DNA from: Candidatus Velamenicoccus archaeovorus
GTDB taxonomy: Bacteria > Omnitrophota > Gorgyraeia > Velamenicoccales > Velamenicoccaceae
Length of the DNA stretch: 32,000 nucleotides
Direction of reading: 5' to 3'
Assembly (NCBI RefSeq): GCF_004102945.1
Contig: NZ_CP019384.1
Location: forward strand, 990,001-1,022,000
Shown: in pieces, positions 2,475 through 29,716 of the stretch
Layout: each line of letters begins with the position of its first letter
Position numbering within the stretch: the stretch's first letter is position 1
Notes under the pieces: generated by a model
Told to the model about the DNA's origin: nothing
The model's input: the letters and a program-made list of their open reading frames with translations, nothing else
The model's database searches: none
Program-made: the position numbers and the translations under genes

Positions 2475-3119
2475 TCAAAGAATTTTTTGGACGATAGCTT
2501 CCATATCCCTTTGGATATCAGTCAATTGGACCGCAGACAAGCCTGCACCAAGCCCAACGCTCATAAGCTCATCTCTACGCAGGATGTCTCCGGGCGCATG
2601 GGCATCTGTGTTGATGCACATCTTGGCGCCATGCCTTAAAGCCATCTGAACCACGTGGCCGTTAGTCAGGCAATGCCCTTTTCTGGCGCTTAGTTCCAAA
2701 TAGACTCCTTTTCTGGCGGCCAGCTCTGCCTCTTCCCCGCGGATGAGGCCTGGATGAGCCACAAGGTCTACCCCGGCTTCAATGGCCGCCCGGACTGTCC
2801 CCGGCAAAACAGGCTCTACCAAAGTCTCTCCATGCGCCACGATCCAGCGGATACCGTTTTTGCGCGCGAAATTCACAGCTTCCGGGAATTGCTCCAAAGG
2901 CAGATGCGTCAATTCAATGCCGGGGATGACCCTGATGCGGCCGACAGGCCAATGATGACAAAATTCGGCAATGGCCGCTGTCACGCTTTTAAGATTGGAG
3001 ATATCCGCGTGGTCGGTGATGGCAATCGCTTTATAACCCTTTTCCTCGTAGCGCCTGGCCAACTCAGAAGCAAGCAGTTCGCCATCGCTCAATAAGGAAT
3101 GCGTATGCAGATCAAACAT
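2475..3119 (-). CDS. PHP-family metal-dependent phosphoesterase (histidinol-phosphatase-like)
   Basis: 214 aa. N-terminal MFDLHTHSLLSDG (HxH metal motif), then ITDHAD, AHGETLVEPV and NTDAHAP, which are typical PHP-domain His/Asp metal ligands. SD AAGGGGGT precedes the ATG. Confidence 0.8.
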   Translation of the reverse strand: MFDLHTHSLLSDGELLASELARRYEEKGYKAIAITDHADISNLKSVTAAIAEFCHHWPVGRIRVIPGIELTHLPLEQFPEAVNFARKNGIRWIVAHGETLVEPVLPGTVRAAIEAGVDLVAHPGLIRGEEAELAARKGVYLELSARKGHCLTNGHVVQMALRHGAKMCINTDAHAPGDILRRDELMSVGLGAGLSAVQLTDIQRDMEAIVQKIL

Positions 3120-3222: not shown

Positions 3223-3723
3223 TCAACGCACTCTAAGGATTTCCCTGATCATCCGGCAAACCGTCCTGGCGCCGGCCTGCACGGTCCGGGAAGGCTTTTT
3301 GCCAAAATCCGTCACTTGCGGCTGGATGCCCAGGACCGTAATCGAACAAGGAAAAGATTGGCACAGATAGCTGGCGAGAATTTTTAGCGGCATGCGGTGG
3401 GTGGAAAACGATATCCCTTCACTGATATCCTGCGCGTCAAAAAGGCGGGCTTCTCCAGGCGCCCTGTCCATGGAGATGGCATCTACGATCAGAAGGTGCG
3501 TGGGCCTGAATTTTTTTATCTCCCCGGTCAGGCTTTCCGGAGCGGTATGTCCCAAAAAAGCCCGTATCTCGACAGGGCCGGCTGTTTTTGACTTGCGGCC
3601 CAAGGCCTTGGCAACCCACAATCCTACGGCGTCGTCCCCTCTCAAATCCGAACCTATGCCGAGAATGCCGAGACGGTCGACACCTTCAAGTTTCTTTTGG
3701 AGTTGGGTCTTGAGATTCTGCAT
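3223..3723 (-). CDS. [NiFe]-hydrogenase maturation endopeptidase (HycI/HybD family)
   Basis: 166 aa. LGILGIGSDLRGDDAVG (GxGxxxxGDDxxG), LLIVDA and FSTHRMP fit the Asp/Asp/His metal-ligand pattern of hydrogenase C-terminal proteases. It is the last gene of the hydrogenase operon and overlaps the preceding gene by 38 nt. Confidence 0.85.
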   Translation of the reverse strand: MQNLKTQLQKKLEGVDRLGILGIGSDLRGDDAVGLWVAKALGRKSKTAGPVEIRAFLGHTAPESLTGEIKKFRPTHLLIVDAISMDRAPGEARLFDAQDISEGISFSTHRMPLKILASYLCQSFPCSITVLGIQPQVTDFGKKPSRTVQAGARTVCRMIREILRVR

Positions 3724-4066
3724 GGAAAATAACCTTCAGCTTTTTTTTATCCAGCTGCGCCAATTCAAACTCAGCGCTGGCTGTAAGCGCCTTCTTCAGG
3801 CAGGAATCCACGCATTGTCCGCAGTAAATGCAGCGGCCAAGGTCAAAAACCGCTTCATAGCGCTTTTCATCGATCTTGCTGATGGTGATGGCATTGGCCG
3901 GACAATCCCGCATGCACATCTTGCAGCCGATGCATTTGGAGGGATCGAACGTGATCTTGCCGCGGAACCCCTTGGGCATGCCGGACCTGTCCGCGGGATA
4001 ATTCAGGGTCGCGGGTTTTTTGAACATGGACTGCAGGACAAGTTTCAGCATTCTTCCGGGTTTCAT
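3686..4066 (-). CDS. 2x[4Fe-4S] ferredoxin-type hydrogenase subunit (NuoI / MbhN / HycF-like)
   Basis: Two CxxCxxCxxxCP-type motifs: CIGCKMCMRDCP and CIYCGQCVDSC. I place the start at ATG 4066, which forms an ATGA overlap with the stop of the NuoH-like gene. The track start at 4141 is an extension inside the upstream gene. Confidence 0.85.
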   Translation of the reverse strand: MKPGRMLKLVLQSMFKKPATLNYPADRSGMPKGFRGKITFDPSKCIGCKMCMRDCPANAITISKIDEKRYEAVFDLGRCIYCGQCVDSCLKKALTASAEFELAQLDKKKLKVIFHAESQDPTPKET

Positions 4067-5001
4067 TGCAACAGGACTCCTTTCAAAAATAAGACGATCA
4101 AAAGCTGCAACAGCGCCAAAGGCACAAGATACTTCCAGCAAAATCTTACCATCTGGTCAATGCGCAGCCTCGCAAAGATCGTACGGGCGAGCGTCAGAAG
4201 GAACACAACGAGAACAACTTTAAGAATGTAAATCAAAAACCCGATGGCCGCCTCGTCCTTCAGGCCGAAGGGCAAAAAGACCGCCGCCAGGAGCGAAGCC
4301 CCGACGACCATCTCGATGTCGATGGCGAGGCGAAAAAATGCATAAAGCCGGCCCGAATATTCCGTGAAAGTGCCGGCGACGATCTCCGTCTCGGCTTCAG
4401 GGATATCGAAGGGCGCTTTTTCCAATTTTCCCAGGAGCGCGACAAGCGCCACGCCAAAGCCGATAAGGTTAAAAAAGCAGTACATGGGGTGGTCAATATA
4501 GAACCGGGAGATATCGCTGAGCGTCCAGCTGTCGGCCAAAAGCGCCGGCGAGAAAAGCCCCATGAACAAAGGCACTTCATACGCAAACATTTGCGTCAGC
4601 GACCTGACAGAACCGATGCGCGCATAGAGAGACGTCGAATACCACCCGCCGATGAAAAAGGTCAGCGTGGGAAGGGTCAATAAATAAAGGACGACGACCA
4701 GGTCGCCGGAAAACGAATACAAGGCCCCGGTCTTCCACAAAGGGATATAGATGATGGATGAAACGACCGCCGTCAAGGCGAACAGAGGCATCAGGCGAAA
4801 CATCCGCACGTTGGCTTCGTCCGGCACGATGTCTTCTTTGCCCAAAAGCTTGATGAAATCCGCCAAAGGCTGAAACCATGGCGGCCCCTGCCTGTTCTGC
4901 ATGCGGGCGTACAGCTTGCGGTCGATGAATTCTGCAAATAAGCCGAACAGCGCCAGAAAAAGAAAACCTGGGAATATCAGAATAAGAAACAAAGCGTTCA
5001 T
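4063..5001 (-). CDS. Membrane anchor subunit, NuoH / MbhM / HycD-like
   Basis: About 312 aa, polytopic and hydrophobic. RKLYARMQNRQGPPWFQPLADFIKLLGKED resembles the NuoH signature (R.....Q.R.GP...G..Q..AD..KL..KE). Start is ATG 5001, in an ATGA overlap with the large-subunit stop. Confidence 0.85.
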   Translation of the reverse strand: MNALFLILIFPGFLFLALFGLFAEFIDRKLYARMQNRQGPPWFQPLADFIKLLGKEDIVPDEANVRMFRLMPLFALTAVVSSIIYIPLWKTGALYSFSGDLVVVLYLLTLPTLTFFIGGWYSTSLYARIGSVRSLTQMFAYEVPLFMGLFSPALLADSWTLSDISRFYIDHPMYCFFNLIGFGVALVALLGKLEKAPFDIPEAETEIVAGTFTEYSGRLYAFFRLAIDIEMVVGASLLAAVFLPFGLKDEAAIGFLIYILKVVLVVFLLTLARTIFARLRIDQMVRFCWKYLVPLALLQLLIVLFLKGVLLQ

Positions 5002-6248
5002 CAATGTTCCATCAGTTGGTGAAGCCTCTTCTCGGCAATGGTGACATCGAATCCTCTGGCACGATGCCATCCCAGGCTGAACGATCTCAAACTCTCCCAG
5101 CCCAGTATCTCTTTTTTTTCGCCGTCAAGGCGCCGGATACCCACCATCCTGTCGGTGCAGGAAAAACATGGATCGATGGCGGCAACGACGATGGGCATAT
5201 CGGCAAGAAACCTGTCTTTCAACATATGTTTGACGGTCTGGACATTTGCCAGGGTCGGGGCCCTCACCTTCACGCGTTCGGGTTTTTCCCCGCCGTTCGA
5301 TTTGACATAGTGGACGTCTTCGCCTCTCGGCGCTTCGTAACGGCTGAAGGCTTCTCCGGCAGGGATCTTGCGCGGGGCCCTGACGGCAATCGGCCCATCG
5401 GGGATCCTGGCGACGATCTGCCGGATGATCTTGAAAGATTCCATCAGTTCCTTTAAACGCACGACGGTGCGGCCATAGACATCACAATGATCGTCCGTGA
5501 TGACATCGAAATCCAGCTCTGCATAGGCGGCATAGGGGTCCTCGCGCCGGATGTCGCGGTCCACGCCGGAAGCCCGCGCCGTAGGCCCCACAGCGCCGAG
5601 ACGGAGCGCATCCTCTTTGGAAATGATGCCGACGCCGGAGAGCCGCTTGATGATCGTTGTCTCTTCCGTTGCGATCTGGATGTAATACTTGGTCCGCTCT
5701 TCGAGAGTCGCCACACCAGCCAGGATATCCTTCCCCTGCTCCGGCGCGATATCACGCCGCACGCCGCCGATGGTATTGATGCCGTAATTGACGCGGTTTC
5801 CCGTCAACTGGGCCAAAAGGTCCATGACGATCTCACGGTCGCGCCACGTATACATGAGCAACGTATCAAAACCGATCTCGTGACCCGCCACGCCCAGCCA
5901 TAAGAAATGACTGTGCACCCGTTCCAGCTCGCCGATGAGAGTACGGATATAGAGGGCGCGCGGCGGCACGGCCAGCCCGGCAATCTCCTCGACCGCCTGG
6001 ACATAGGCAGTGGAATGGGAATGAGAACAGATGCCGCAGATACGCTCCAGCAGATAAACATCCTGAAGGAATGTCCTTTCTTCGCAGGCTTTTTCAATGC
6101 CGCGGTGGTTATATCCCAGGCGGATGTCGACGCCGAGGATCTTTTCGCCTTTCAGGGCGATACTGAAGCTCTCCGGCTCTTTTAACGCAGGATGCTGGGG
6201 CCCGAGAGGGATCTTGAATTCATGTTCGTGTTCATGAGAATTATGCAT
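5001..6248 (-). CDS. Group-4 [NiFe]-hydrogenase large (catalytic) subunit, NuoD-like
   Basis: 415 aa from ATG 6248 (SD GGGGAG; 1 nt after the upstream TAA). N-terminal ligand motif RICGICSHSH, with Cys codons at 6038..6036 and 6029..6027. C-terminal DPCFSCTDR, with Cys codons at 5168..5166 and 5159..5157. A 48-aa tail follows. Confidence 0.95.
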   Translation of the reverse strand: MHNSHEHEHEFKIPLGPQHPALKEPESFSIALKGEKILGVDIRLGYNHRGIEKACEERTFLQDVYLLERICGICSHSHSTAYVQAVEEIAGLAVPPRALYIRTLIGELERVHSHFLWLGVAGHEIGFDTLLMYTWRDREIVMDLLAQLTGNRVNYGINTIGGVRRDIAPEQGKDILAGVATLEERTKYYIQIATEETTIIKRLSGVGIISKEDALRLGAVGPTARASGVDRDIRREDPYAAYAELDFDVITDDHCDVYGRTVVRLKELMESFKIIRQIVARIPDGPIAVRAPRKIPAGEAFSRYEAPRGEDVHYVKSNGGEKPERVKVRAPTLANVQTVKHMLKDRFLADMPIVVAAIDPCFSCTDRMVGIRRLDGEKKEILGWESLRSFSLGWHRARGFDVTIAEKRLHQLMEH

Positions 6249-6249
6249 A

Positions 6250-6717
6250 TTACATCTCCCCGCCAGAACCGTTCGCCGGCTTCCAGTCTTTGCGCAAAGG
6301 GTGTTCATCCGCAGGCCAGTCATCCGTCAAGGGATAACGATTTCCCTTGCGCAATCCCTGCACCTTGGCGCCGAACAAGTCGACGATCTCGCGTTCGTAA
6401 ATCTCTGCGCCGGGAAATACAGCCGTGATCGTCCGGATCACCGGATCTGATTTCGGCGCCCGCGTCTTAAGGTTCAACGTGATACCGCCTTCCCGGGCCA
6501 GGTGATAGATGAATCCGAGGTCGTCCCCTTCGTCTGTTCCCGTGATCGTGCAGAGGATGTTGAATTTCTCCTGATGCACCAGAAAATCAAAAACTTCCGA
6601 GAATCTGTCGCGGGCGACTTCGGCAGACAGGCGCCGCGGCCTGATGACCTTAAAAAAATCTTTCAGGAAATCAAACTGCCTGATCGTATTTTGCCTGATA
6701 TCCTCTTCGCAACTCAT
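6250..6717 (-). CDS. NuoC / MbhK-like (30-kDa) hydrogenase subunit
   Basis: 155 aa. Position between the NuoB-like and NuoD-like genes. YEREIVDLFGAKVQG...PLRKDW resembles the conserved NuoC core (ERE..D.FG..F.GHP..R). ATGA overlap with the upstream gene. Confidence 0.8.
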   Translation of the reverse strand: MSCEEDIRQNTIRQFDFLKDFFKVIRPRRLSAEVARDRFSEVFDFLVHQEKFNILCTITGTDEGDDLGFIYHLAREGGITLNLKTRAPKSDPVIRTITAVFPGAEIYEREIVDLFGAKVQGLRKGNRYPLTDDWPADEHPLRKDWKPANGSGGEM

Positions 6718-7238
6718 AGGGCATCTCCTGAATTCGCCTGTTCGTCCGTGCCGGCGCCATCTTCGGTTTTGTCCTGCTTCTTCGCTCCGGGGACAGGAGG
6801 CTTCCCTGCCTCCTCGAGGCTTGTCAATAACTTGACCACGCCGTCAATGATCGCCTTGGGGCCTGCGGGGCAGCCGGGGATATAGGCAGAAACGGGGATG
6901 ACCTCGTCTATGCCGCCGCGCACATTGTAACAGCCCTTAAAAACACCTCCGCCGCATGCGCAGGCTCCGACGGCAACCACAAATTTCGGTTCAGGCATTT
7001 GGTCATAAATACGCTTAAGTCTGTCCTGGATCTGTTTTGTGACGGGCCCGGAGCAAACCAGGACGTCCGCATGCCGCGGCGTCCCTTTCAGCTGGATCCC
7101 GAAACGCTCCACGTCATAGAGAGGCGTCAGGGCGGCAACAATCTCGATATCGCAGGCATTGCATGCGCCCGAATTGAAATGCAGGATCCACGGTGATTTG
7201 ATGCGCGCCCAATTGATGATCTTGCGAATGAACTTCAT
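6714..7238 (-). CDS. [NiFe]-hydrogenase small subunit, NuoB / MbhJ-like ([4Fe-4S] carrier)
   Basis: 174 aa. Cys ligand set SGACNACDIE ... GACACGGG ... IPGCP, typical of NuoB-type subunits. SD AGGAG. C-terminal ~35-aa acidic low-complexity tail. Confidence 0.9.
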   Translation of the reverse strand: MKFIRKIINWARIKSPWILHFNSGACNACDIEIVAALTPLYDVERFGIQLKGTPRHADVLVCSGPVTKQIQDRLKRIYDQMPEPKFVVAVGACACGGGVFKGCYNVRGGIDEVIPVSAYIPGCPAGPKAIIDGVVKLLTSLEEAGKPPVPGAKKQDKTEDGAGTDEQANSGDAL

Positions 7239-7239
7239 C

Positions 7240-7575
7240 TCATCTCCTAAAAAGGATAAACAAACCCGCTATGACTGCGACGATGTATAACTCCGCCATC
7301 ATCAGGGTATTGACCGATTCCAAAGGAATGGCCGTGATCATCATGGTCGCCACGTGCGCGACCGTAAAAAAGAACGCAAAAGGGAAAAACTGGCTGTAAT
7401 CCGGCTGAGCCATGTGGTCTTCCACATCCTCCCCGCAGGCATAGGCCTTCCCTGTCCCTTCTTCTCTTTTATCTTTCCTCTTGAAGGCAAAAACGGAAAG
7501 GCCGCGAGAAAGCAGCAAAAGAAAAAGAAAGACGATGGCAAAAACGACCGGAGGCGCCAACAGATATCGTCCCAT
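7240..7575 (-). CDS. Small 3-TM membrane subunit, NuoA / MbhI-like
   Basis: 111 aa, three predicted TM helices. The loop KAYACGEDVE parallels the NuoA YECGF loop, followed by FFPFAFFFTVAHV. It sits directly upstream of the NuoB-like gene, as in mbhI-J and nuoA-B. Confidence 0.55.
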   Translation of the reverse strand: MGRYLLAPPVVFAIVFLFLLLLSRGLSVFAFKRKDKREEGTGKAYACGEDVEDHMAQPDYSQFFPFAFFFTVAHVATMMITAIPLESVNTLMMAELYIVAVIAGLFILFRR

Positions 7576-7578
7576 AGG

Positions 7579-7899
7579 TCAACCTTTGAGATTCCTTAAT
7601 TGCCTGACGTCCAGGCTCTTGTTATGCTGATGCAGCCCCAGGACGATTCCGGCGGCAACGGCAATAATGACGACTTCCATAACGATAAGTGTAATGACCA
7701 GACTTTGGATCAACGCCTCGTGCCGCGTAACATACCCCACCAAAACAAGCAATAAGGTAACAGCCTTAATCAACAATTCCAGACCGATCAAGGCGCGGAT
7801 CAAGTTAAAAGTCACAAGCAGGCAATAGAACCCGATAATGAAGAGGATCACGATAAACAGGCAAAACGGCCAGAATAAGGTCAAAGCTTGCGCGCTCAT
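7579..7899 (-). CDS. NuoK / MrpC / MbhG-like membrane subunit
   Basis: 106 aa, three TM helices. NLIRALIGLELLIKAVTLLLV matches the NuoK/MnhC pattern (..L.G.E....A.nL..v). ATGA overlap with the upstream gene. Confidence 0.75.
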   Translation of the reverse strand: MSAQALTLFWPFCLFIVILFIIGFYCLLVTFNLIRALIGLELLIKAVTLLLVLVGYVTRHEALIQSLVITLIVMEVVIIAVAAGIVLGLHQHNKSLDVRQLRNLKG

Positions 7900-8399
7900 T
7901 TCTTTTTAGCCTCCCTGAAAAGAATGACGATGCCGAAGGCGCCCGTCAACAGCATGATGATCTGGCCCAATAGATCCAGGGGCCTCTGGTTCCAGAGGAC
8001 GATGCGCGGGTCCTTCTCGATCTCCGGCGCAGGCAAGATCAGGTTGAATTTAAGATTCAAAAAACTCAGGACGATCCCGGTAAGGATCAAAAGGATCGGC
8101 AGATACCAGAACCTTTCAAGCCTGTCCTTCATGTGTTGCAGGACCTTTTCCTGCGACATGGGCTGCGTCAGGCTGATGGTCGCGATAAAAACGACGGAGA
8201 TCAGGCCCGAACAGACCGACAGTTCAAAGACGGCCGCCAGGGGCGCATGAAGACGGAACATCAGGATCGTCAACATGGCGCTCGTCAAGGCCAAGCCGAT
8301 CGCAGATCTCAAGAGACTGCGGGTCATGACCGTCCACAACGCGGACAGCGCCATCAGGAACAAAACGACAATATCGATGTTCAATGCCAACATACTCAC
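7896..8399 (-). CDS. NuoJ-like / MbhD-MbhE-type membrane subunit
   Basis: 167 aa, hydrophobic. The N-terminal half ALSALWTVMTRSLLRSAIGLALTSAMLTILMFRLHAPLAAVFELSVCSGLISVVFIATISL parallels the NuoJ/MbhD pattern. The track start is GTG 8399; ATG 8393 (third codon) is an equally plausible start. Confidence 0.6.
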   Translation of the reverse strand: MSMLALNIDIVVLFLMALSALWTVMTRSLLRSAIGLALTSAMLTILMFRLHAPLAAVFELSVCSGLISVVFIATISLTQPMSQEKVLQHMKDRLERFWYLPILLILTGIVLSFLNLKFNLILPAPEIEKDPRIVLWNQRPLDLLGQIIMLLTGAFGIVILFREAKKK

Positions 8400-8411
8400 T
8401 CTGCCTTTTCT

Positions 8412-9830
8412 CTAATAAGACACCACAGGGAAAATAACCGTGTGCACGATATACGGGAAAAACAAGCCGATGCCTACGATCAGAACCGCCAAAATGATCG
8501 CAGGCAATGTCAGGCCGAATCCCGCCTCAACAACGCCTTCAAGACCTTTCTCCAGCGTTCCGAAAAATACACTGCGCTGAAACAAAAGCATATAGGCCAA
8601 GGTCAACAGGCTCGCCATGACCGCAGTGGCAGCCACCCCGTAATGGCCGCACTGCCACAGGGCCAAAACAATAAATAGCTTGCTCCAGAAACCGGCCAAT
8701 GGCGGAACGCCTGAAGCGGACAACGATGCTAAAACAGACGTCGTCCCTGTAACAGGCATCCTTGAAGCCAAGCCCGACATCCGGCTCATGTCCAGAGAAC
8801 CCGTCCGGTCCTCTACGGCCGCAGCATTGACGAAGAGAAGCGATTTAAACACCGTATGGTTGAAAATATGGAAAATGGCGGCAGCGATGCCCAACGGCGT
8901 TCCACAACCGAACCCAAGGAAAATATACCCCACCTGGCTGATGCTGGAATATGCCAAGAGCCTCTTTAAGTCCTTCTGTCCCATGGCCGCCAAGGCCCCG
9001 AAGATAGCTGAAATAAGGCCAATACAGAGAAGGATGCTCTGGAGAGAGGCGCTGAAACCGAAGAGATCGATGACGATGCGCATCGCCGTATAGACGCCTA
9101 AAGTCTTGGTGACGACGCCTGCCAGGAGAATCGAAACAGGAGCCGGCGCAGAGGCATAAGCGTCCGGAAGATAACCGTGAAAAGGCATCACGCCAGCTTT
9201 CATGAACAACCCCGCCAGAAAGATACCCACCGCAAGAGTGATCAAAAAGCTGTGCGGCGACACCCGCAGGGCTTCGCGGATTGCGGCAAAACTCGTATCT
9301 CCGGAGATAAGCAGGATAATCGCGATGGCCGATAGTACAAAAACCGTAGCTACCGAAGAAAAGATGAGGTATTTGAACGCCCCCTCAAGAGGGTCCCTCT
9401 TTTTTTGAAGGGCGATCAGGATAAAAGAGGCTGCGGCAGCAACCTCCCAGAAGACATACATGGAGAAAATGTCCCTCACCATGACTACGCCGTTTAAGCC
9501 CATCAGTTCCAAGATCATGAGCCCCGCGAAATAAAAACGCTTATCTTCTTCTTTGACAAAAGGCGCCGCGACCAAAAGCGCAATAAAAATGACGATTGCA
9601 ATGCACAAAAGCATGATCCGGCTCAAGCCGTCCACGGCCAGCGTGAAGTCAAAGACCGAAGCCAGGCCGTGTAAAGGACGGTTAGCCATGATAGTTGGGC
9701 AGAACACCGCATATATCTGGAAAAAAGACAAGGCCATAACGACGGCGAAAGCCATCCGCCTGCCTTTTAAAGTCAGGAAGTTCATCAGAAGCAAAAACGC
9801 CAAAGGGATGAGGATCAATAAAGAAAGCAT
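8412..9830 (-). CDS. Antiporter-like subunit (NuoN / NuoM / MrpD / MbhH family)
   Basis: About 472 aa from ATG 9830 (2 nt after the upstream TAG). The track's 32-codon extension overlaps the upstream gene. Proton_antipo_M-type core: FWEVAAAASFILI, MKAGVMPFHGYLPDAYASAP, LLAYSSISQVGY, IFHIFNHTVFKSLLF. Confidence 0.88.
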   Translation of the reverse strand: MLSLLILIPLAFLLLMNFLTLKGRRMAFAVVMALSFFQIYAVFCPTIMANRPLHGLASVFDFTLAVDGLSRIMLLCIAIVIFIALLVAAPFVKEEDKRFYFAGLMILELMGLNGVVMVRDIFSMYVFWEVAAAASFILIALQKKRDPLEGAFKYLIFSSVATVFVLSAIAIILLISGDTSFAAIREALRVSPHSFLITLAVGIFLAGLFMKAGVMPFHGYLPDAYASAPAPVSILLAGVVTKTLGVYTAMRIVIDLFGFSASLQSILLCIGLISAIFGALAAMGQKDLKRLLAYSSISQVGYIFLGFGCGTPLGIAAAIFHIFNHTVFKSLLFVNAAAVEDRTGSLDMSRMSGLASRMPVTGTTSVLASLSASGVPPLAGFWSKLFIVLALWQCGHYGVAATAVMASLLTLAYMLLFQRSVFFGTLEKGLEGVVEAGFGLTLPAIILAVLIVGIGLFFPYIVHTVIFPVVSY

Positions 9831-9832
9831 TA

Positions 9833-11674
9833 CTAAAAACTCCTTGTCGACATAAGAAATATGACCAGTATCAAGAGGCCGCCGAGAGACCACCCGAGAT
9901 ACGTCACGTAACTTCCGGAATGCCACCGTTTCAAGGTGCGTGCCAAAACCTGGGCGCAGCCAGGAAATCCTGCGTTATAAATCCAGTCAATCCCCCTGTC
10001 AAGCCGCCACAAGAGATATGAGAAACCTCTCATCATCGCCCTGCCCCATTCATAAGGATCAAAGCATCGCCTTTCCGCCCTATCATAGATCCCCGACAAA
10101 ACAGGGGCGTCGTGGATATAGTCGACAGCCTTCAAGCCGCTGCCCTTCATTTTGGCGCCGAAGACATGGTTGGCAAACGCCATCAAAAGCATGATAATCG
10201 TGACAGCAACAAGCTTTGTGTTGGGCATCAAGAAAGAGAAATCCTGTCCCTCGAGATGGTTCTCGACCGCCGGCTGGACCAACTGCCCGATGGGAAAAGA
10301 ACGATGCAGGCCGAAAAAGACGCATCCTGCGGCGATAACAATCATAGGTATGAGCATAAAAACAGGCGCTTCTTTGGCCGTCTGGGTCGTCTCGCTCCTG
10401 GGGCCTAGGTAAGCGGCATGACCCAGCTTCAGAAAAGAAGCCGCCGTCAAAAAGGAGCCTAAAATAGCCGCCAGATAAAAAACCAGCCCCCTCTCCAGGG
10501 CACCGTCATAAACGAGTTCTTTGGAAAAGAAACCGTTGAACGGCGGCACGCCCGAGATGGCCGCGGCTGCGACAAAAAAACACAGGAATGTGACAGGCAT
10601 TTTTCCGGCCAATCCTCCAAGACGCTCCAGGTCCGTCGTCCCCGATTGGCGCTCTACGGCCCCGGATGTCAAAAAGAGGCAAGACTTATACATGGCGTGG
10701 TTGATCATATGGAACAGGCCGCCGACAATACCGATAGGCACGGCCGTGCCTATCCCCAGGATCATATATCCCACTTGGCTGATGGCATGATACGAAAGCA
10801 GTTTTTTGTAATTTTTTTGGACCAAGGCCATCATGACAGCCAACAGGATGGTCACGGAACCGATGATCATCAACGCCATGCTCAGGCCGGATTCCGGAAC
10901 AAGCCTGAAAAGATCGAGGCAGATCCTCGCCAAAAGATAAATACCCAAAAGTTTTTCAAGGGCGGCCGGCAAAAACGCCATGAACGGCAGCGGCGCATCA
11001 AGGCTGGCATCCGGTATCCAGGTGTGGAACGGCATGGATCCGGCCTTGGAGATCGCGCCGATCATCATCAGGACAAAAGCCAGGCTGCCCAAGCCTCCCA
11101 GCGGAACCTGGATCTTTGAGATCGCAAAGGTCCCGCTCAAGTGCCCGACCAAAGCGATGCCGACCATCATACAAAGATCTGCAACTCCAACGATCACCAG
11201 GGCCTTGACCCCCGTCTTAAACGCTGTCGGACCCCCTATGGCAATAAGACCAAAGACGGTCAGAAGCAGCCCCTCCCAGAAAAAGAGCAAGATAATCAGA
11301 TTGTCCGAAAGGACGGCACCATTCACAAGGCTCAGCGAAAAAAGGAAAAAAGTAAAGAATAGGCGGCTCTTTTCTTTTGCGAACGTGAAAACGCATGAAT
11401 AAATGGCAATGAGAAAAGCAAACCCGCCGGCGGCCGTCAGGATAAAAGCGCTGAAACGATAAAACCTCAGAGAAAAATCAATACCGTATGCCCCCCAGGG
11501 ACAGAAAAATGTCACCTCTTGGGGGAAAAGCCGCAGGCACAAAACAAGGTCGGCAGCCGTCACCGCAAGGACCAGCGCTTGTTTAAGGAACCTCGTCCTT
11601 TGAGGCGCCAGCATCACCACACAGCCGGCAAGAAAAGGCCCCAGGACAAGCAACGGCAGGGATAAATTCATCAT
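9833..11674 (-). CDS. NuoL-like antiporter-like subunit with C-terminal lateral-helix segment
   Basis: 613 aa. Core motifs FWEGLLLTVF, SKAGSMPFHTWIPDA, LLSYHAISQVGYM, LFHMINHAMYKSCLFL. The C-terminus FDPYEWGRAMMRGFSYLLWRLDRGIDWIYNAGF...LKRWHSGSYVTYLGWSLGGLLILVIFLM resembles the NuoL/Nqo12 HL helix plus terminal TM anchor. ATGA overlap with the upstream gene. Confidence 0.88.
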   Translation of the reverse strand: MMNLSLPLLVLGPFLAGCVVMLAPQRTRFLKQALVLAVTAADLVLCLRLFPQEVTFFCPWGAYGIDFSLRFYRFSAFILTAAGGFAFLIAIYSCVFTFAKEKSRLFFTFFLFSLSLVNGAVLSDNLIILLFFWEGLLLTVFGLIAIGGPTAFKTGVKALVIVGVADLCMMVGIALVGHLSGTFAISKIQVPLGGLGSLAFVLMMIGAISKAGSMPFHTWIPDASLDAPLPFMAFLPAALEKLLGIYLLARICLDLFRLVPESGLSMALMIIGSVTILLAVMMALVQKNYKKLLSYHAISQVGYMILGIGTAVPIGIVGGLFHMINHAMYKSCLFLTSGAVERQSGTTDLERLGGLAGKMPVTFLCFFVAAAAISGVPPFNGFFSKELVYDGALERGLVFYLAAILGSFLTAASFLKLGHAAYLGPRSETTQTAKEAPVFMLIPMIVIAAGCVFFGLHRSFPIGQLVQPAVENHLEGQDFSFLMPNTKLVAVTIIMLLMAFANHVFGAKMKGSGLKAVDYIHDAPVLSGIYDRAERRCFDPYEWGRAMMRGFSYLLWRLDRGIDWIYNAGFPGCAQVLARTLKRWHSGSYVTYLGWSLGGLLILVIFLMSTRSF

Positions 11675-13113
11675 GGTATCACCCGGATCATCTGTGTTGT
11701 CGCCTGCTGGACCATGTCAAGCGGATAGCGTACCCATATCCCGGCCGCCAGCGACAGGAACGCCAAGACAAGAACACAAGCCACCATGACAGGCGTCCCT
11801 TCCCTGGCAGCGATCTTTGTCTCGCCGAAAAATACGACGGTAAAAACGCGCAAAAGATAAAGGATCGTCATCAGGGCAGCAAAAAGAAAAACGAAACCGA
11901 GCCCCATCTGGCCGCCCTGAACGCACCCCAGGAAAATCAGGAATTTGCTGAAGAACCCGCCGAACGGCGGCAGACCCATGACAGAAGCGGCGCAGAACAA
12001 AAATGCCGTGCCGGTCAACGGCATCGTCGAAAACAACCCGCCAAGCCGGCTAATGTCCTTGGTCTTTGTCCCCTGCTCAATGATGCCTGCACACAAAAAG
12101 AGGCCGGCCTTGGCCATGCCGTGCATGAGGATGTAAAGCAGGCCTCCGGCGATAGCGATCTCGACGCCCAGGCTCAATCCGAAAAAGATAAAACCGATCT
12201 GGCTGACCGTTGAATAAGCGATGATCCTCTTTAAATCCGTCTCTCTCAAAGCTGCGCCCGCCGAAACAATGCTGCTGACGGCAGCCACCCATGGCAAGAT
12301 CACATGCCAGACCGCCCCGATGGGAAAAGTGGCTATAAACAACCTGGCAAAGACATAGACGCCGATCTTGACAAGGACGGCCGCATGCAGAAGGGCTGTC
12401 ACCGGCGACGGTGCCACGCCGGCATCCGCCAGCCATGTATGAAAAGGTAATGTCGCCGATTTTGAGAATATCCCGAAGAGGATCAGAATCAAGGCCAAAG
12501 AAGGAAAGGCCTGTGTCTTAAAATACTCCTTAATCACCCCGAGATCAAAAGAACCGGTCTTCTGATACAACATCAAAAAACCGATGAGCATGACCAGGGC
12601 GCCCCCAAACGTCACAAGAAAGGCCTTGTCGGCGCGCTGCACGTCGGTCTTGCCTCTGAAAAAGCCGATCAGACGCCAGCTGACGATGGCGGTCATCTCC
12701 CAGAAGATATAGAGGAAAATAAGATTCGATGAAAAGACAATACCCATCATCGAGCCGAGAAAAAGCACGACCAGCATGTCGTACTCGTTGCGGTTGGCAT
12801 AATGAGAGATGTAATCAAAGGAATAAATAACGATGACAAGGCCCACCAGAAGGGATGCCAGGGCCATGAAAACGGCAAGACCGTCAGCCGTAAAACTGAG
12901 GTCCATGCCAAAAGGCATGGACGCTGAAAAACGGACGACCTGCCCTGAGAAAACAACGGAGGACAATCTGACGGCAGCAAGGAAGGAAAATGCGACAAGG
13001 AGAAACGCCAGGGAATGACGCAGACGCTCATGGATCCGGCCCGCCAAGGGCAAAACAAACGAACCCAAAACAGGCACACCAACAATCAACGCTAAAAGAA
13101 TATCAAATGGCAT
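11671..13113 (-). CDS. Antiporter-like subunit (NuoM / NuoN / MrpD family), first gene of the hydrogenase operon
   Basis: 480 aa from ATG 13113 (SD GAGGG about 12 nt upstream). Motifs FWEMTAIVSW, SKSATLPFHTWLADAGVAPSPV, IIAYSTVSQIGF, LYILMHGMAKAGLFL. The track start at 13218 abuts a terminator T-tract and has no SD, so I reject it. Confidence 0.88.
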   Translation of the reverse strand: MPFDILLALIVGVPVLGSFVLPLAGRIHERLRHSLAFLLVAFSFLAAVRLSSVVFSGQVVRFSASMPFGMDLSFTADGLAVFMALASLLVGLVIVIYSFDYISHYANRNEYDMLVVLFLGSMMGIVFSSNLIFLYIFWEMTAIVSWRLIGFFRGKTDVQRADKAFLVTFGGALVMLIGFLMLYQKTGSFDLGVIKEYFKTQAFPSLALILILFGIFSKSATLPFHTWLADAGVAPSPVTALLHAAVLVKIGVYVFARLFIATFPIGAVWHVILPWVAAVSSIVSAGAALRETDLKRIIAYSTVSQIGFIFFGLSLGVEIAIAGGLLYILMHGMAKAGLFLCAGIIEQGTKTKDISRLGGLFSTMPLTGTAFLFCAASVMGLPPFGGFFSKFLIFLGCVQGGQMGLGFVFLFAALMTILYLLRVFTVVFFGETKIAAREGTPVMVACVLVLAFLSLAAGIWVRYPLDMVQQATTQMIRVIP

Positions 13114-13221
13114 GTGTATCTGAATCCCTCGCGGGAAACCGCAGGGTACCTTGAGGCGTACTGTCTTTTTTGTGAGTACCGCGCCGGCACCGCAACCTTG
13201 CCGGCATTCGGGGGTCATTAA

Positions 13222-13255
13222 ATAAAAAAGCCCAACCTATTTCCAGGTGGGGCTG
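13222..13255 (-). terminator. Terminator-like hairpin plus T6 tract in the leader of the hydrogenase operon
   Basis: Minus strand: GCCCCACCU-GGAAAU-AGGUUGGGC (13253..13230, one internal mismatch), then UUUUUU (13229..13224). It lies about 110 nt upstream of the operon start codon. Confidence 0.55.
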
Positions 13256-13320
13256 CTTCGCCGGACCTTGTTGATATGGGTTTAAAGCTACTGCGCTTTT
13301 ATCAAACTTTCAACGTTATA

Positions 13321-13349
13321 TTTTTACCACATCGTCCGCACAAAATCAA
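13321..13349 (-). promoter_or_regulatory. Candidate sigma-70 promoter upstream of the hydrogenase operon leader
   Basis: Minus strand: TTGATT (13349..13344), 17-nt spacer ending in TGG, TAAAAA (13326..13321). Sequence pattern only. Confidence 0.3.
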
Positions 13350-13412
13350 GAAATTTTTGACCTGCGGCGGAGCTTCATTGCTAAACGGTCGGCCTTATTC
13401 GGCCGACCAGCG

Positions 13413-13433
13413 CCCTTAAGTTCTCGCCTTGCA
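13413..13433. repeat. Repeat R2, copy 2 (cccttaagttctcgccttgca)
   Basis: Matches 13662..13683 (cccttaaagttctcgccttgca) apart from one extra A. Confidence 0.85.
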
Positions 13434-13508
13434 TTGATCCATCCTTCGCTAAGGTTTTGAATAAACCTGTAGTCGTTCAGGATGAATTTTTGCTTCGCAA
13501 AAATTCAA

Positions 13509-13525
13509 TGCCCCCGGCAAGGCTC
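13509..13525. repeat. Repeat R1, copy 2: 17-bp duplicate of the 3' end of tRNA-Arg
   Basis: tgcccccggcaaggctc at 13509..13525 is identical to 13696..13712, which is the discriminator base, 3' acceptor strand, 3' T-stem strand and end of the T-loop of the tRNA. Confidence 0.9.
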
Positions 13526-13635
13526 CGTCCGCCGAAGGCGGACTAGAACTTTCGCTCGGCTTCCGCCTCGCTCTCCATAGGGGCTTTGCCCCTCTGGCGC
13601 TCCCCCGACATATCGTCGGGGTCGCTGTCACCCCT

Positions 13636-13659
13636 AAAACGCGGGGACGGCCTCCCCGC
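13636..13659 (-). terminator. Hairpin with short U-tract downstream of tRNA-Arg
   Basis: Minus strand: GCGGGGA-GGCCG-UCCCCGC (13659..13641) followed by GUUUUA. The U-tract is short, so this is a weak terminator call. Confidence 0.4.
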
Positions 13660-13661
13660 AC

Positions 13662-13683
13662 CCCTTAAAGTTCTCGCCTTGCA
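13662..13683. repeat. Repeat R2, copy 1
   Basis: cccttaaagttctcgccttgca, located 12 nt beyond the tRNA 3' end. See 13413..13433. Confidence 0.85.
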
Positions 13684-13695
13684 GAAAAAGAAAAG

Positions 13696-13769
13696 TGCCC
13701 CCGGCAAGGCTCGAACTTGCCACACCAGGTTTAGGAAACCTGTGCTCTATCCAGATGAGCTACGGGGGC
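13696..13769 (-). tRNA. tRNA-Arg (anticodon CCT)
   Basis: Manual cloverleaf of the reverse complement: GCCCCCG TA GCTC ATCTGGATA GAGC A CAGGT TTCCTAA ACCTG GTGTG GCAAG TTCGAGC CTTGC CGGGGGC A. All stems are Watson-Crick. 74 nt, CCA not encoded. Confidence 0.93.
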
Positions 13770-24020: not shown

Positions 24021-24998
24021 TTATATTCTGTAGAGCGTCCCGTCGGCTGCGACCAAAACGGCTTTTGTGTCCGCAAACCGGCTCAGGAGCTTACGGCTTT
24101 TTTCCAATCCCAGGACGACACACGCCGTCGACAATACGTCTGAAGCCGTGGCATCGGGCGTGACGACGGTCGCCGAGACAATCCCGGACTGGACAGGATA
24201 GCCTGTTTTAGGATCGATGATGTGCGAATATCTCCTGCCGTTGATCTCGGCATATTGCTGATAGTCACCGGCGGTGGCCGCCGCCTTGTTGGTCAACGCG
24301 AGTTCATCCACGACCTTCCCTTCATGGAAAGGATCCTGGACGCCTACGCGCCACAGCGCACGGCGATTCCTCCCCAGGCAATAGACATTACCTCCGGCGT
24401 TGATCAAGGCAGAATCGATCCGCGCGTCTTTGAGCTTCCTGACAGCCCGATCCAGGGCAAACCCTTTGGCGATCCCTCCGAGATCGATACGCATGCCGCT
24501 CTTGAGCAGCACAACCTCTCTTGTCTTTGCGTCCAGATAAATGAAATCCGAACCCGCGAGCGACAAGGCCTGTACCACAGCTTCGGGAGCGGGCAATGTT
24601 TTCGAAGCGATGGCCTTCTTCCAAAGCATGGCTGCAGGCCCCACCGTGACGTCAAAGGCGCCGTCCGTGCGGCGGTAAAATTCCTGGGCCCGTTGAATGA
24701 TGTCAAATAACGGCTCCGAAACAACGGCCCTCTGGCTGCCATTCAGCCGCGACAATTCGCTGTCGCGGTCGAAAAGATTAAAGACCGCTTCCAGCTTCTT
24801 GAATTCATCGAACACGATCGCCGAGGCACGGACGTCGGGAGACTTGACCTCAACAAAAGTCCCCATGATAAATTGCGTCTCCTGGTATAACGGCTTCTGG
24901 CACCCCATCATCCCAAGGCACAGAGTACAGAAAATAATGGAACGACGGATATCACGCGATAAAAAAAACATCATTTTATTTCTCTTATTGTTTCTCAT
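24021..24998 (-). CDS. apbE: FAD:protein FMN transferase (ApbE family), probable lipoprotein
   Basis: 325 aa. Lipobox-like LGMMGC. IMGTFVEV, FDVTVGP, DLGGIAKGFALD and YSHIIDPKTGYP are ApbE family motifs. The start could also be Met9/Met10. Confidence 0.9.
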   Translation of the reverse strand: MRNNKRNKMMFFLSRDIRRSIIFCTLCLGMMGCQKPLYQETQFIMGTFVEVKSPDVRASAIVFDEFKKLEAVFNLFDRDSELSRLNGSQRAVVSEPLFDIIQRAQEFYRRTDGAFDVTVGPAAMLWKKAIASKTLPAPEAVVQALSLAGSDFIYLDAKTREVVLLKSGMRIDLGGIAKGFALDRAVRKLKDARIDSALINAGGNVYCLGRNRRALWRVGVQDPFHEGKVVDELALTNKAAATAGDYQQYAEINGRRYSHIIDPKTGYPVQSGIVSATVVTPDATASDVLSTACVVLGLEKSRKLLSRFADTKAVLVAADGTLYRI

Positions 24999-27989: not shown

Positions 27990-28697
27990 CTAATAACCTA
28001 TGAAATCCTCTGTGATGATCCTGTCTTCCTGGACGGCAAGCTTGTTCATCAGCATCTTGCGCATGGCGTCGACCATGGCAGGCGGACCGCAGGAATAGAA
28101 GATCCTTTCAGGATAATCCTGGATCTCCTGGCGCACCAGATCGTCATCAATATAGCCCTTAAAGCACCCTTCGATCTTTTCGGAACATTCCGTCAGGGTA
28201 TAGACGATCCTGAGACGGTCGTTCTCCTTTTGCATCGCCGATAACTCGTTACGGAAGATCAAATACTCCGGCGTGCGGCTGGAATACAAAAGGACGAGAC
28301 TCGACGGCAACTTCATATCCGTCGCGTATTTGAAAATACTGCGCACCGGCGTGATACCGATGCCGCCGATCAAAAATGCGGCCTTGGGATACTGGCCGGT
28401 AAATGTAAATTTCCCCATAGGGAACCGCACAGCGCATGCTTGACCCACCTGCAGGGACTCCAAGGCCCTGGAAAAAGGACTATTGCTGAGTTTCTTCGTG
28501 AACTGGATGAACCCCTTTTCGGTCGGAGAACTCGAAATAGAAAAAGCCTTGGAGACCGGACGCCCGGCTATCGTGAGCGTCAAGACCAGATACTGTCCCG
28601 GCTCATATGGGACATCCTCTTCCAGGGAAAAACGGAACGTCTTGACATCGCAGCACTGCGTGACGATCTCCATAAGTTCCAACTGACGGTTATCCAT
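27990..28697 (-). CDS. FNR-like FAD/NAD(P)-binding oxidoreductase (ferredoxin-reductase-type domain pair, no Fe-S domain)
   Basis: 235 aa from ATG 28697 (the track start at 28712 is TTG). FAD motif KAFSISS (RxYS-type), NAD motif FLIGGIGITP, C-terminal CGPPAM. Confidence 0.85.
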   Translation of the reverse strand: MDNRQLELMEIVTQCCDVKTFRFSLEEDVPYEPGQYLVLTLTIAGRPVSKAFSISSSPTEKGFIQFTKKLSNSPFSRALESLQVGQACAVRFPMGKFTFTGQYPKAAFLIGGIGITPVRSIFKYATDMKLPSSLVLLYSSRTPEYLIFRNELSAMQKENDRLRIVYTLTECSEKIEGCFKGYIDDDLVRQEIQDYPERIFYSCGPPAMVDAMRKMLMNKLAVQEDRIITEDFIGY

Positions 28698-28708
28698 GAA
28701 TCCGCCTT

Positions 28709-29716
28709 TCAAAGTTCCTTTTGCGTCCGGCCGATCAACCGTTTCATGTCATGCCTGCCAATGAAACACCCGGCCACGTCCGGATGGCCGCCGCCGCCGA
28801 ATTCCTCGGCGATCCGGCCGACATTGACGAGCCCCTTGGACCTGAGACTGACACGCCACCGGCCGTCGAACATCTGCCGGAACAAAAGGATCGCCTTGAT
28901 GTCCTTGAGCGTCCTTATCTGATCGGCAATGGGATCGACATCCTCTTCGTTCGCCTTCAGCCGCTTGAGGTCGGATGCCCTGACATAGGTCACCGCCAGC
29001 CGGCCGCGATTATAAAAACGGACGCGCGAAAAACAAATACCCAGGAGCATCGCCTCCTGACGCGTACGGCTCCAATAACTCTTCTCCACAAGCTGGTAAT
29101 AATTAACCCCCCTGGAAATCAACTCGGCACAGATCCTGAAGGTATCCGCCGTAATGGTCGGAAGCCTGAAAGAACCCGTCTCCACGATAATGGACACCAG
29201 AAGGCAAACCGCCATCTTCCTGTCGGGCGAAAGCCCCAGCATGCGGACGAGACGGTAGACGATCTCGCCGACAGCGGCAGCCTTCTTATCGATGATCTTT
29301 AAATTGGCGAACGGTTTGCGAAAGGTATGATGATCGATCTCGACCGCCTGCTTCGCCTTCAGAAAAACGTCCTCATGGAATTTTCCCAGCTGGACCCAAG
29401 AAGCGCAATCAAGGGCAATAGCCAGATCGAAAGGCGAGCTGTTCTCAGGCTTGAGACGAATAGAACTGTAATGAGGCAGGAAACGGTAACGCGCGGGCAA
29501 TGCGCTCGGGGAAAACAATGTCACGTCTTTCTTGAGACGTTGGAGCGCCAGCGCCAACCCTGTCATCGATCCCAAGGCGTCACCGTCAGGAAACATATGT
29601 ACGCACACCGCAATCCTTCCGGCCTTCCTGATGGCTTGTGCCACGCCCCGGTAATCTTCGATCTTCTGCACGCGGCCTCCGTTTCCACCCATCATTCCCA
29701 TGCTCGCCGCCCTCAC
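28709..29716 (-). CDS. nrnA: DHH/DHHA1 phosphoesterase, NrnA-like (oligoribonuclease / pAp phosphatase)
   Basis: H[10 protein letters not shown], IDHHTF (DHH motif) and [10 protein letters not shown] (DHHA1 GGGH motif). The start is either GTG 29716 (GTGA overlap with the upstream stop) or ATG 29701. Confidence 0.85.

Follow-up and report, generated by a model that had tools for sequence, protein, structure and literature searches.

Predicted eleven-subunit group-4 [NiFe] hydrogenase with a complex-I-type membrane arm in Candidatus Velamenicoccus archaeovorus and related bacteria

Complex I is thought to have arisen when a membrane-bound hydrogenase combined with an Mrp antiporter, and enzymes that use or make H2 and possess a full complex-I membrane arm represent natural test cases for this origin. 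To our knowledge, neither a structure nor an ion stoichiometry has been determined for any hydrogenase with such an arm. The subject of this study is an operon of 12 consecutive minus-strand genes (positions 3223 to 13113) within a stretch of 32,000 nucleotides (nt) of the Candidatus Velamenicoccus archaeovorus genome, the whole of which is referred to as the window. The closest described systems are archaeal. Loh et al. (2021; PMC7886697) reported Hfo of the Bathyarchaeia, an 11-subunit enzyme lacking the Na+ module, which was said to close an evolutionary gap, and Valentin-Alvarado et al. (2024; PMC11291895) modelled, for Asgard archaea, a ‘complex I-like’ hydrogenase whose L-like subunit bears a full lateral helix. 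Bacterial versions were named ‘Mbh, Mrp-linked’ or ‘Mbh-Mrp type’ by Williams et al. (2021) and in papers of the Banfield laboratory. For V. archaeovorus itself, Seymour et al. (2023) described a membrane-bound [NiFe] hydrogenase of HydDB group 4g, a polyphyletic catch-all, and assigned the enzyme to redox balance. The initial annotation of the operon had proposed a poorly characterised group-4 subtype, which agrees with this 4g call outside groups 4a and 4d; our own placement rests on best-hit comparisons together with the published HydDB calls. The novelty attributed to an ‘11-subunit intermediate’ was overstated, since the idea had been published for archaea in the two studies named above. 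Our literature search found no paper describing the bacterial clade as an 11-subunit complex-I-like hydrogenase.

Our proposal, given a probability of about 0.72, is that eleven of the genes specify the subunits of an ion-translocating group-4 [NiFe] hydrogenase coupled to ferredoxin, and that the twelfth provides the protease for its maturation. Subunit families were assigned by Pfam and NCBIfam searches of the window proteins. The full set of 11 complex-I-type subunits postulated at the outset (homologues of A, B, C, D, H, I, J, K, L, M, and N) was found, with the Ni–Fe site intact. Judged by sequence, the catalytic module is Mbh-like and the membrane arm corresponds to the parts list of complex I (A, H, J, K, L, M, and N). 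Because the Na+ module of the MrpE/F/G/B type is absent, this arm would be of the complex-I type, unlike that of Pyrococcus Mbh. The genes, in the order of transcription and with lengths in amino acids (aa), are as follows:

11671..13113, minus strand: Ant1, antiporter-like subunit, 480 aa (QAT17056)
9833..11674, minus strand: Ant2L, NuoL-like antiporter-like subunit, 613 aa (QAT17055)
8412..9830, minus strand: Ant3, antiporter-like subunit of the MbhH/MrpD/NuoM-N type, 472 aa (QAT17054)
7896..8399, minus strand: J, NuoJ-like subunit, 167 aa
7579..7899, minus strand: K, NuoK/MbhG/MrpC-like subunit, 106 aa (QAT17053)
7240..7575, minus strand: A, NuoA/MbhI-like subunit, 111 aa (QAT17052, ‘hypothetical’ in GenBank)
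6714..7238, minus strand: B, NuoB-like hydrogenase small subunit, 174 aa (BU251_04525)
6250..6717, minus strand: C, NuoC-like subunit, 155 aa (QAT17051)
5001..6248, minus strand: D, [NiFe] large subunit, 415 aa (QAT17050)
4063..5001, minus strand: H, NuoH/MbhM-like membrane anchor, 312 aa (QAT17049)
3686..4066, minus strand: I, NuoI/MbhN-like subunit with 2x[4Fe-4S], 126 aa (QAT17048, exact match)
3223..3723, minus strand: HycI-type large-subunit maturation endopeptidase, 166 aa (QAT17047)

All 12 open reading frames (ORFs) were thus present at these coordinates, co-directional and in the order given at first, and the sizes of 480, 613, 472, and 415 aa, along with eight others, agree exactly with the GenBank/RefSeq proteins of CP019384; every long ORF of the window lies on the minus strand. 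For the large subunit, identity to QAT17050 of Ca. Velamenicoccus archaeovorus (Omnitrophota; CP019384, 1.97 Mb) amounts to 100%, and ten further operon products exactly match proteins of the same record (range QAT17047–QAT17056), where they carry a mosaic of names such as ‘NADH-ubiquinone oxidoreductase chain’, ‘hydrogenase-4 component B’, ‘energy-conserving hydrogenase subunit F’, and ‘hypothetical’. In the GenBank record CP019384, the gene for B has a locus tag (BU251_04525) but no protein accession. Its ORF is intact, a RefSeq protein exists (WP_128699693.1) and the protein was detected, so that the missing accession is probably an annotation artefact.

The genes had been described as mostly joined by 4-bp overlaps, which turned out to apply to only 4 of the 11 junctions (ATGA at Ant1/Ant2L, J/K, B/C, and H/I). 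Among the remaining seven, the extremes are an overlap of 38 nt and a gap of 12 nt, the latter at Ant3/J, where J begins with a GTG start codon. Packing is still tight, and junctions of this kind leave no space for an Mrp-type Na+ module. Profile hidden Markov model (HMM) scans detected no MrpE/F/G, NuoEFG, formate dehydrogenase, HycB, or carbon monoxide dehydrogenase genes in the operon or in the rest of the window. Accordingly, the early observations that the MrpE/F/G-like subunits (MbhA-C) are missing, with no matching ORF either, and that no such input module is attached were both borne out. Promoter and terminator scans gave matches no more frequently than in shuffled sequence, and an Rfam search at gathering thresholds of approximately 880 nt upstream of the operon returned a tRNA only and no riboswitch.

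The large subunit D carries both Ni–Fe cysteine motifs in intact form, namely RICGICSHSH (L1) and DPCFSCTDR (L2). Relatives were collected by scanning one genome per species, and large-subunit relatives were found in 349 species-level genomes. Among the best 80 of these 349 genomes, with large subunits 70–95% identical, L1 was kept as R[IV]CGICSH[SAT]H in 79/80 and L2 as DPCFSCTDR in 80/80. A C-terminal extension follows L2, with 48 aa in the window and 36–71 aa among relatives. D matched Pfam families PF00346 (Complex1_49kDa) and PF00374 (NiFeSe_Hases), and its solved-structure matches were ranked MbhL (333 bits, E 3e-98), HycE (267), Nqo4 (235), and MbsL (208). Its identity amounts to 46% with P. 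furiosus MbhL, 37% with HycE/HyfG, and 28% with E. coli NuoD.

The small subunits expected of a group-4 enzyme, namely NuoB-like, NuoI-like with 2x[4Fe-4S], NuoC-like, and NuoH-like proteins, are all present. B matched PF01058 (2.3e-31), with Cys26, 29, 62, 93, and 123 invariant in 73/73 sequences; C matched PF00329 (3.2e-24) and is encoded separately from D, without fusion; I matched Fer4 families, and all eight of its cysteines are invariant (72/72). The HycI protease was recognised by PF01750 (9.6e-14). The operon product is supported as a genuine group-4 [NiFe] hydrogenase because of its intact ligands, the C-terminal extension of the large subunit, and the dedicated protease. For a Ni–Fe(CN)2CO cofactor and H2 activity, the signs are indirect and consist of this extension, the HycI protease, hyp genes beside the operon of a relative, and the detection of the protein. 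The initial conclusion that both cysteine pairs denote a real hydrogenase is in line with these results, and so is the argument against an Mbx/Mbs/Ehr or quinone-reducing derivative, given the intact Ni–Fe ligands and the identity of 28% to NuoD.

For the small membrane subunits, J and A were tested family-wide by HMM searches over 31 orthologues each. J of the window matched Pfam NuoJ (7.4e-8) and MbhD (9.4e-6), and in its family NuoJ was matched in 31/31 members (best 1e-10), MbhD in 24/31, and MbhE in 2/31. Searched against the Protein Data Bank (PDB), the J profile recovered MbsD (4e-10) and MbhD (3e-7), both on the N-terminal half, and was collinear with E. coli NuoJ over residues 10–110, with a weak E-value of approximately 0.1; hhalign widened the NuoJ match to 29–154. 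Five transmembrane (TM) helices are predicted for J, and Glu59 of the NuoJ type is invariant (71/71). Because of the MbhD/MbsD profile matches, the collinearity with NuoJ, and the five helices, J can be read as a predicted fusion of MbhD and MbhE with NuoJ topology. K matched PF00420 (NuoK; 7.1e-17), and its Glu41 and Glu75, corresponding to both NuoK membrane glutamates, are invariant in 71/71 sequences.

Subunit A, with three TM helices, matched Pfam NuoA at only 1.7e-3 in the window; in the family, 27/31 members were matched (best 9.5e-6). Its profile retrieved ND3/NuoA chains only from the PDB (E 0.019–0.37), and its invariant YACGE loop aligns on the YxCG (YECG) loop of ND3. In hhalign comparisons, A was aligned with E. 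coli NuoA at E 1.7e-4 and with the protein at the MbhI position of a Methanoregula-type cluster at a probability of 98%. The NuoA-like and NuoJ-like assignments, for which an HMM check had been suggested, were upheld by the counts given above. The anchor H was identified by PF00146 (2.7e-77) and matched MbhM (144 bits) in the PDB, closely followed by Nqo8 (137), with HycD at 103.

Proton_antipo_M was matched in three operon proteins by Pfam and NCBIfam. Ant1 (PF00361, 8.6e-68, plus PF00662, Proton_antipo_N) represents an MrpA/NuoL-type core without C-terminal extension, its top PDB matches being MrpA (216 bits), NdhF (184), and NuoL (172). Ant3 (PF00361, 1.3e-67) is most similar to MbhH (189 bits), MrpD (177), and MbsH (170). 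The Glu of TM5, Lys of TM7, His/Lys of TM11, and Lys of TM12 are retained in Ant1, Ant2L, and Ant3, and a Lys–acid pair of the NuoL type is also present in Ant2L.

Ant2L resembles NuoL over its full length. Its residues 31–610 align to positions 35–612 of the 615 in the NCBIfam NuoL model, residues 33–603 align to 31–601 of the 606 in Thermus Nqo12, and the C-terminus aligns with the lateral helix (GxDWxY motif) and TM16 of E. coli NuoL. An AlphaFold2 model built from 62 homologues (pLDDT 82.6, pTM 0.81) features TM15 at 486–510, two short helices, a 45-residue helix at 540–584, and TM16 at 589–610. In Foldseek comparisons, TM-scores of 0.74–0.81 were obtained with NuoL/ND5/NdhF chains over the full length; the corresponding values were 0.75–0.77 (query) and 0.58–0.60 (target) for MrpA, and 0.70 (query) and 0.84 (target) for MbhH, the latter covering the core only. 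The segment from TM15 to TM16 comprises approximately 90 residues, as in E. coli NuoL, which would fit a helix spanning two neighbouring subunits. Three antiporter-like subunits placed first, one of them NuoL-like, had been named at the outset, and the predicted full lateral helix with TM16 in Ant2L is in accordance with that description. In Margulisiibacteriota and other lineages, Ant1 and Ant2L form one protein of approximately 1000 aa without the first ~60 residues of Ant2L. Such long antiporter-like proteins, counting the 1094-aa one of the Methanoregula-type cluster described below, concern P0474, P0483, P0495, loci L084–L087, and L086:3806-7090. The natural fusion implies that Ant1 and Ant2L must be neighbours.

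The order Ant1-Ant2L-Ant3-J-K-A-B-C-D-H-I(-protease) was identical in every sufficiently long related locus. In total, 59 related loci were complete, and the protease occupied the same position in 47 of them. Median junction gaps in the 59 loci were at most 12 nt, the exceptions being H/I, with a gap of 23 nt, and I/protease, where the genes overlap by 38 nt. The hosts belong to Omnitrophota, Sedimentisphaerales/Phycisphaerae, Krumholzibacteriia, Margulisiibacteriota/Saganbacteria, Fibrobacterota, Ratteibacteria, and Bacillota. More distant versions from Clostridia/Bacillota contain the same 12 genes, P0121 being the closest sampled large-subunit representative among them (56% identical to D of the window), and in one Bacillota relative hypABFCDE is located directly downstream of the operon. 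The nearest representatives of 50%-identity clusters (52–56% identity) originate from Methanoregula, Anaerolineales, Bathyarchaeota, and Asgard archaea. The Methanoregula-type archaeal cluster consists of split D/E-like genes, a K-like gene, antiporter-like proteins of 1094 and 490 aa, an A-like gene, and B-C-D-H-I-HycI. Since synteny is unbroken in loci across several phyla, the antiporter-like genes belong to the same conserved unit as the hydrogenase genes rather than to a separate one.

Among the annotated recurrent neighbour families in the flanks of the 59 complete loci, no formate dehydrogenase, carbon monoxide dehydrogenase, NuoEFG-like, or HycB-like family was found, and no ferredoxin ORF with the CxxCxxCxxxCP motif lies within 3 kb of these loci. 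Recurrent neighbours were a membrane H+/Na+-pyrophosphatase (23 loci), ExbB/ExbD (17–18), and F-type ATP synthase genes (8–13), with examples at L032:13069-15807, L026:19072-19872, and L060:14977-16500; none of these adjoins the operon in the V. archaeovorus window. The lack of an attached input module and the ion-gradient enzymes among the neighbours point to a soluble ferredoxin partner and a chemiosmotic role.

Expression of the operon was documented in a laboratory enrichment (Table S2, PMC12583861), in which all 12 genes were transcribed at 5–33 transcripts per million (TPM) and seven products were detected as protein, namely D, C, B, Ant1, Ant2L, Ant3, and a trace of H. Abundances, given in the same table as relative intensity-based absolute quantification (riBAQ) in parts per million (ppm) for three fractions, amounted to 33, 9, and 41 for D; 56, 13, and 65 for C; 21, 3, and 27 for B; 7.5, 1.3, and 2.3 for Ant1; 1.9, 0, and 4.4 for Ant2L; 1.4, 0, and 2.3 for Ant3; and, as a trace only, 0, 0.55, and 0 for H.

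In the proposed mechanism, reduced ferredoxin would deliver electrons to the two [4Fe-4S] clusters of the NuoI-like subunit I, from which they would pass through the cluster of the NuoB-like subunit to the Ni–Fe site in the MbhL-like D, where H+ would be reduced to H2, possibly also in reverse. The redox change would be relayed via the NuoH-like H and the charged residues of A, J, and K into the three antiporter-like subunits, presumably clamped by the lateral helix of Ant2L, and H+ (or Na+) would be moved across the membrane. The analysis itself shows which subunits are encoded, that cofactor ligands and channel residues are intact, that a NuoL-type helix is present, and that the operon is syntenic and expressed; the ferredoxin partner, ion pumping, the physical order of the subunits, the stoichiometry, and the physiological direction are what we infer here.

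Several points weigh against this proposal. The electron donor is deduced only from the absence of other modules and from analogy to Mbh and Ech, and our literature search found neither a structure nor an activity for the bacterial clade. The side on which the peripheral arm docks differs among known enzymes, being the A/J/K side in complex I and the position next to the antiporter-like subunit in Mbh/Mbs, and it cannot be read from sequence. The transfer of electrons from ferredoxin to H2 yields approximately 20 kJ/H2 at high H2 partial pressure and up to approximately 45 kJ/H2 at the few-pascal H2 of methanogenic cultures. This would pay for approximately 1–3 ions at 150 mV, as opposed to four putative paths, and with so little energy per H2 the four paths cannot all pump with complex-I stoichiometry in the H2-evolving direction. 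Possible resolutions are a gearing for low-H2 habitats, paths that do not pump, or operation in reverse.

The last of these resolutions constitutes an explanation of its own, in which the same complex uses the membrane potential for the H2-dependent reduction of low-potential ferredoxin, a high ion-to-electron ratio permitting this at low H2. Eha and Ehb are known for such membrane-potential-driven ferredoxin reduction with H2, the four putative ion paths would exceed what H2 evolution can energise, and ATP synthase and pyrophosphatase are often located beside the operon in relatives. A reverse role was also proposed for 11-subunit Hfo (Loh et al., 2021; PMC7886697), and acetogenesis with a partial Wood–Ljungdahl pathway was predicted for V. 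archaeovorus by Seymour et al. (2023), who nevertheless placed the enzyme in redox balance. Moreover, V. archaeovorus was described as a predator in a methanogenic culture in which H2 is scarce, and the direction is not contained in the sequence, group-4 enzymes being generally reversible. We regard operation mainly in this direction as possible but rather unlikely. Slightly better odds, although still short of even, are given tentatively to the idea that the clade combines a working Ni–Fe site with the membrane-arm arrangement of complex I, in which NuoH and the peripheral arm sit at A/J/K, the antiporter row extends beyond, and the lateral helix ties it together.

Two further explanations are very improbable. 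A derivative not acting on H2, which would reduce quinone, sulfur, or another acceptor in the manner of complex I, Mbs/Mbx, or Ehr, might be suspected from the top NCBIfam model for D, namely NuoD (352.6 bits, the cut-off being 360), and from the GenBank names, most subunits being called NADH-ubiquinone oxidoreductase chains. However, the CxxC motifs are kept in 79–80 of 80 relatives, the C-terminal extension is predicted to be cleavable, a HycI protease is encoded, hyp genes adjoin the operon in a relative, and D is closer to MbhL (46%) than to NuoD (28%), with MbsL at 208 bits. Hardly any weight is given, either, to the three antiporter-like genes being a separate transcription unit or Mrp-like transporter, with the eight downstream genes alone forming the hydrogenase. 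The 12-nt gap and GTG start at Ant3/J and the lower riBAQ values of the antiporter-like proteins compared with D, C, and B would fit such a division, but poorer proteomic recovery is expected of very hydrophobic proteins. The possibility of a separate unit had been raised at the outset as a check, and no locus across several phyla was found to part the two gene sets, with the short median gaps mentioned above. In addition, MrpB, C, E, F, and G, all required by an independent Mrp, are absent here, and the NuoL-type lateral helix has a TM16 that depends on partner subunits.

The ferredoxin-coupled hydrogenase proposed here also has practical relevance. The clade is common (349 species-level genomes), occurs in Omnitrophota, Planctomycetota, Bacillota, Margulisiibacteriota, and further anaerobes, and is expressed in an enrichment, and the mismatch between four putative ion paths and the 1–3 ions affordable presents an energetic puzzle. 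If the complex-I arrangement with a Ni–Fe site proves true, the inversion of modules by which complex I differs from Mbh/Mbs would predate the loss of the Ni–Fe site. The lineages within Clostridia and Sedimentisphaerales would then be bacterial sources for a first structure and a first measurement of ions per two electrons, which could reveal a high-stoichiometry ‘gear’ for very low H2.

The operon is flanked by unrelated housekeeping genes, among them those for an outer-membrane pore, a PHP hydrolase, tRNA-Arg, APRT, a LacI-like protein, a sigma-70 factor, PPDK, and ProRS. A PHP-family histidinol-phosphatase-like gene (2475–3119, minus strand) lies directly downstream of the protease gene; members of its cluster occur on several Omnitrophota contigs whose lengths equal those of contigs with NuoH-like cluster members, and it may be a conserved neighbour of the operon in close relatives. 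Further upstream of the operon, genes for an ApbE flavin transferase (24021–24998, minus strand) and an FNR-type FAD/NAD-binding oxidoreductase (27990–28712, minus strand) were identified, ApbE being commonly required for Rnf/Nqr maturation. Between the tRNA-Arg(CCT) gene (13695–13769, minus strand) and the first hydrogenase gene, approximately 580 nt are non-coding (13114–13694), and no Rfam family matched this region at gathering thresholds. It contains a GC-rich hairpin followed by a T-run at approximately 13250–13222, about 110 nt before the Ant1 start codon, which could be a terminator of the tRNA or an operon leader/attenuator. A perfect 17-nt copy of the tRNA-Arg 3' end is located at 13509–13525, 187 nt downstream, and a second pair of direct repeats of 21 nt was found at 13413–13433 and 13663–13683; these repeats between the APRT gene and the operon could be left over from an att site or have arisen by local duplication. 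An ‘alginate export’/18-strand beta-barrel outer-membrane pore of 480 aa (QAT17045, 726–2168, minus strand), encoded two genes downstream of the operon, reached approximately 86,500 ppm riBAQ and 671 TPM and was by far the most abundant listed product near the locus (Table S2, PMC12583861).

The operon shares features with several known systems. E. coli Hyf (group 4a) also features three antiporter-like subunits, along with NuoK-like and NuoH-like subunits and homologues of B, D, and I, and Ant1 is 35% identical to HyfD. However, Hyf possesses HyfA (HycB-like), a link to formate dehydrogenase, a C-D fused large subunit, and a different gene order, and it has no separate NuoA-like or NuoJ-like genes. 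A Hyf/FHL assignment was rejected, as searches of the window and of the regions flanking the 59 loci gave neither HycB nor formate dehydrogenase and C and D are unfused.

P. furiosus Mbh (group 4d, PDB 6CFW) is ferredoxin-coupled and represents the best solved-structure match for D, H, Ant3, and the N-terminal half of J. Its gene order D/E, G, I, then J to N runs parallel, so that the resemblance of the distal half to Mbh, noticed in the initial annotation, holds from J to I. In contrast, Mbh has 14 subunits, only one of which is of the single antiporter-like kind; it carries the Na+ module MbhA-C and F (= MrpE, F, G, and B), keeps D and E as individual subunits, and lacks a lateral helix of the NuoL type, whereas the V. 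archaeovorus operon encodes three antiporter-like subunits, a J corresponding to a D-E fusion, and a predicted full-length lateral helix. The Mbh-type Na+ module (MbhA, B, C, and F) is absent from the window, the 59 related loci have the same composition, and canonical Mbh was rejected for lack of this module. Complex I without the N-module (11-subunit NDH-1/Fpo-like) shares the same 11 core subunit families, and the likeness extends to Ant2L, which corresponds to NuoL over its full length (TM-score ~0.8), to the NuoK/NuoJ glutamates, and to the NuoA YxCG loop, present as YACGE. Complex I lost the Ni–Fe cysteines and reduces quinone, whereas the V. archaeovorus operon keeps the Ni–Fe site and the protease. 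Respiratory complex I/NDH-1/Fpo was rejected on account of the four conserved Ni–Fe cysteines and the low NuoD identity, and an Ehr/Mbx/Mbs assignment on account of the intact Ni–Fe ligands.

The two archaeal systems are the closest in kind. The Asgard hydrogenase (PMC11291895) likewise combines an Mbh-like catalytic module with several antiporter-like subunits, including an L-like one that bears a full lateral helix, and has also been interpreted as a link between hydrogenases and complex I. It differs in being archaeal, in its syntenic association with Hdr, a group-3 hydrogenase, and ATP synthase, and in its Nuo-like membrane genes, reported to number as many as eight; the closest large subunits found from Asgard archaea are 577-aa NuoC-D fusions with 49% identity to D of the window. 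Hfo of the Bathyarchaeia (HydDB 4g, lineage 4g-6) shares the 11-subunit set and the intact L1/L2 motifs. Like the V. archaeovorus operon, it has neither the MbhABCF Na+ module nor a NuoEFG/FpoFO input, has been assigned to 4g through HydDB, and is biochemically uncharacterised. Hfo is archaeal and follows the Nuo/Fpo gene order A-B-C-D-H-I-J-K-L-M-N, unlike the order Ant1-Ant2L-Ant3-J-K-A-B-C-D-H-I-protease of V. archaeovorus, which is Mbh-like from J to I. The nearest Bathyarchaeota representatives are 52–53% identical to D of the window, one of them being a C-D fusion. Hence, the operon is a bacterial member of an already described kind of enzyme, and it is to be regarded as an experimental target rather than as a discovery.

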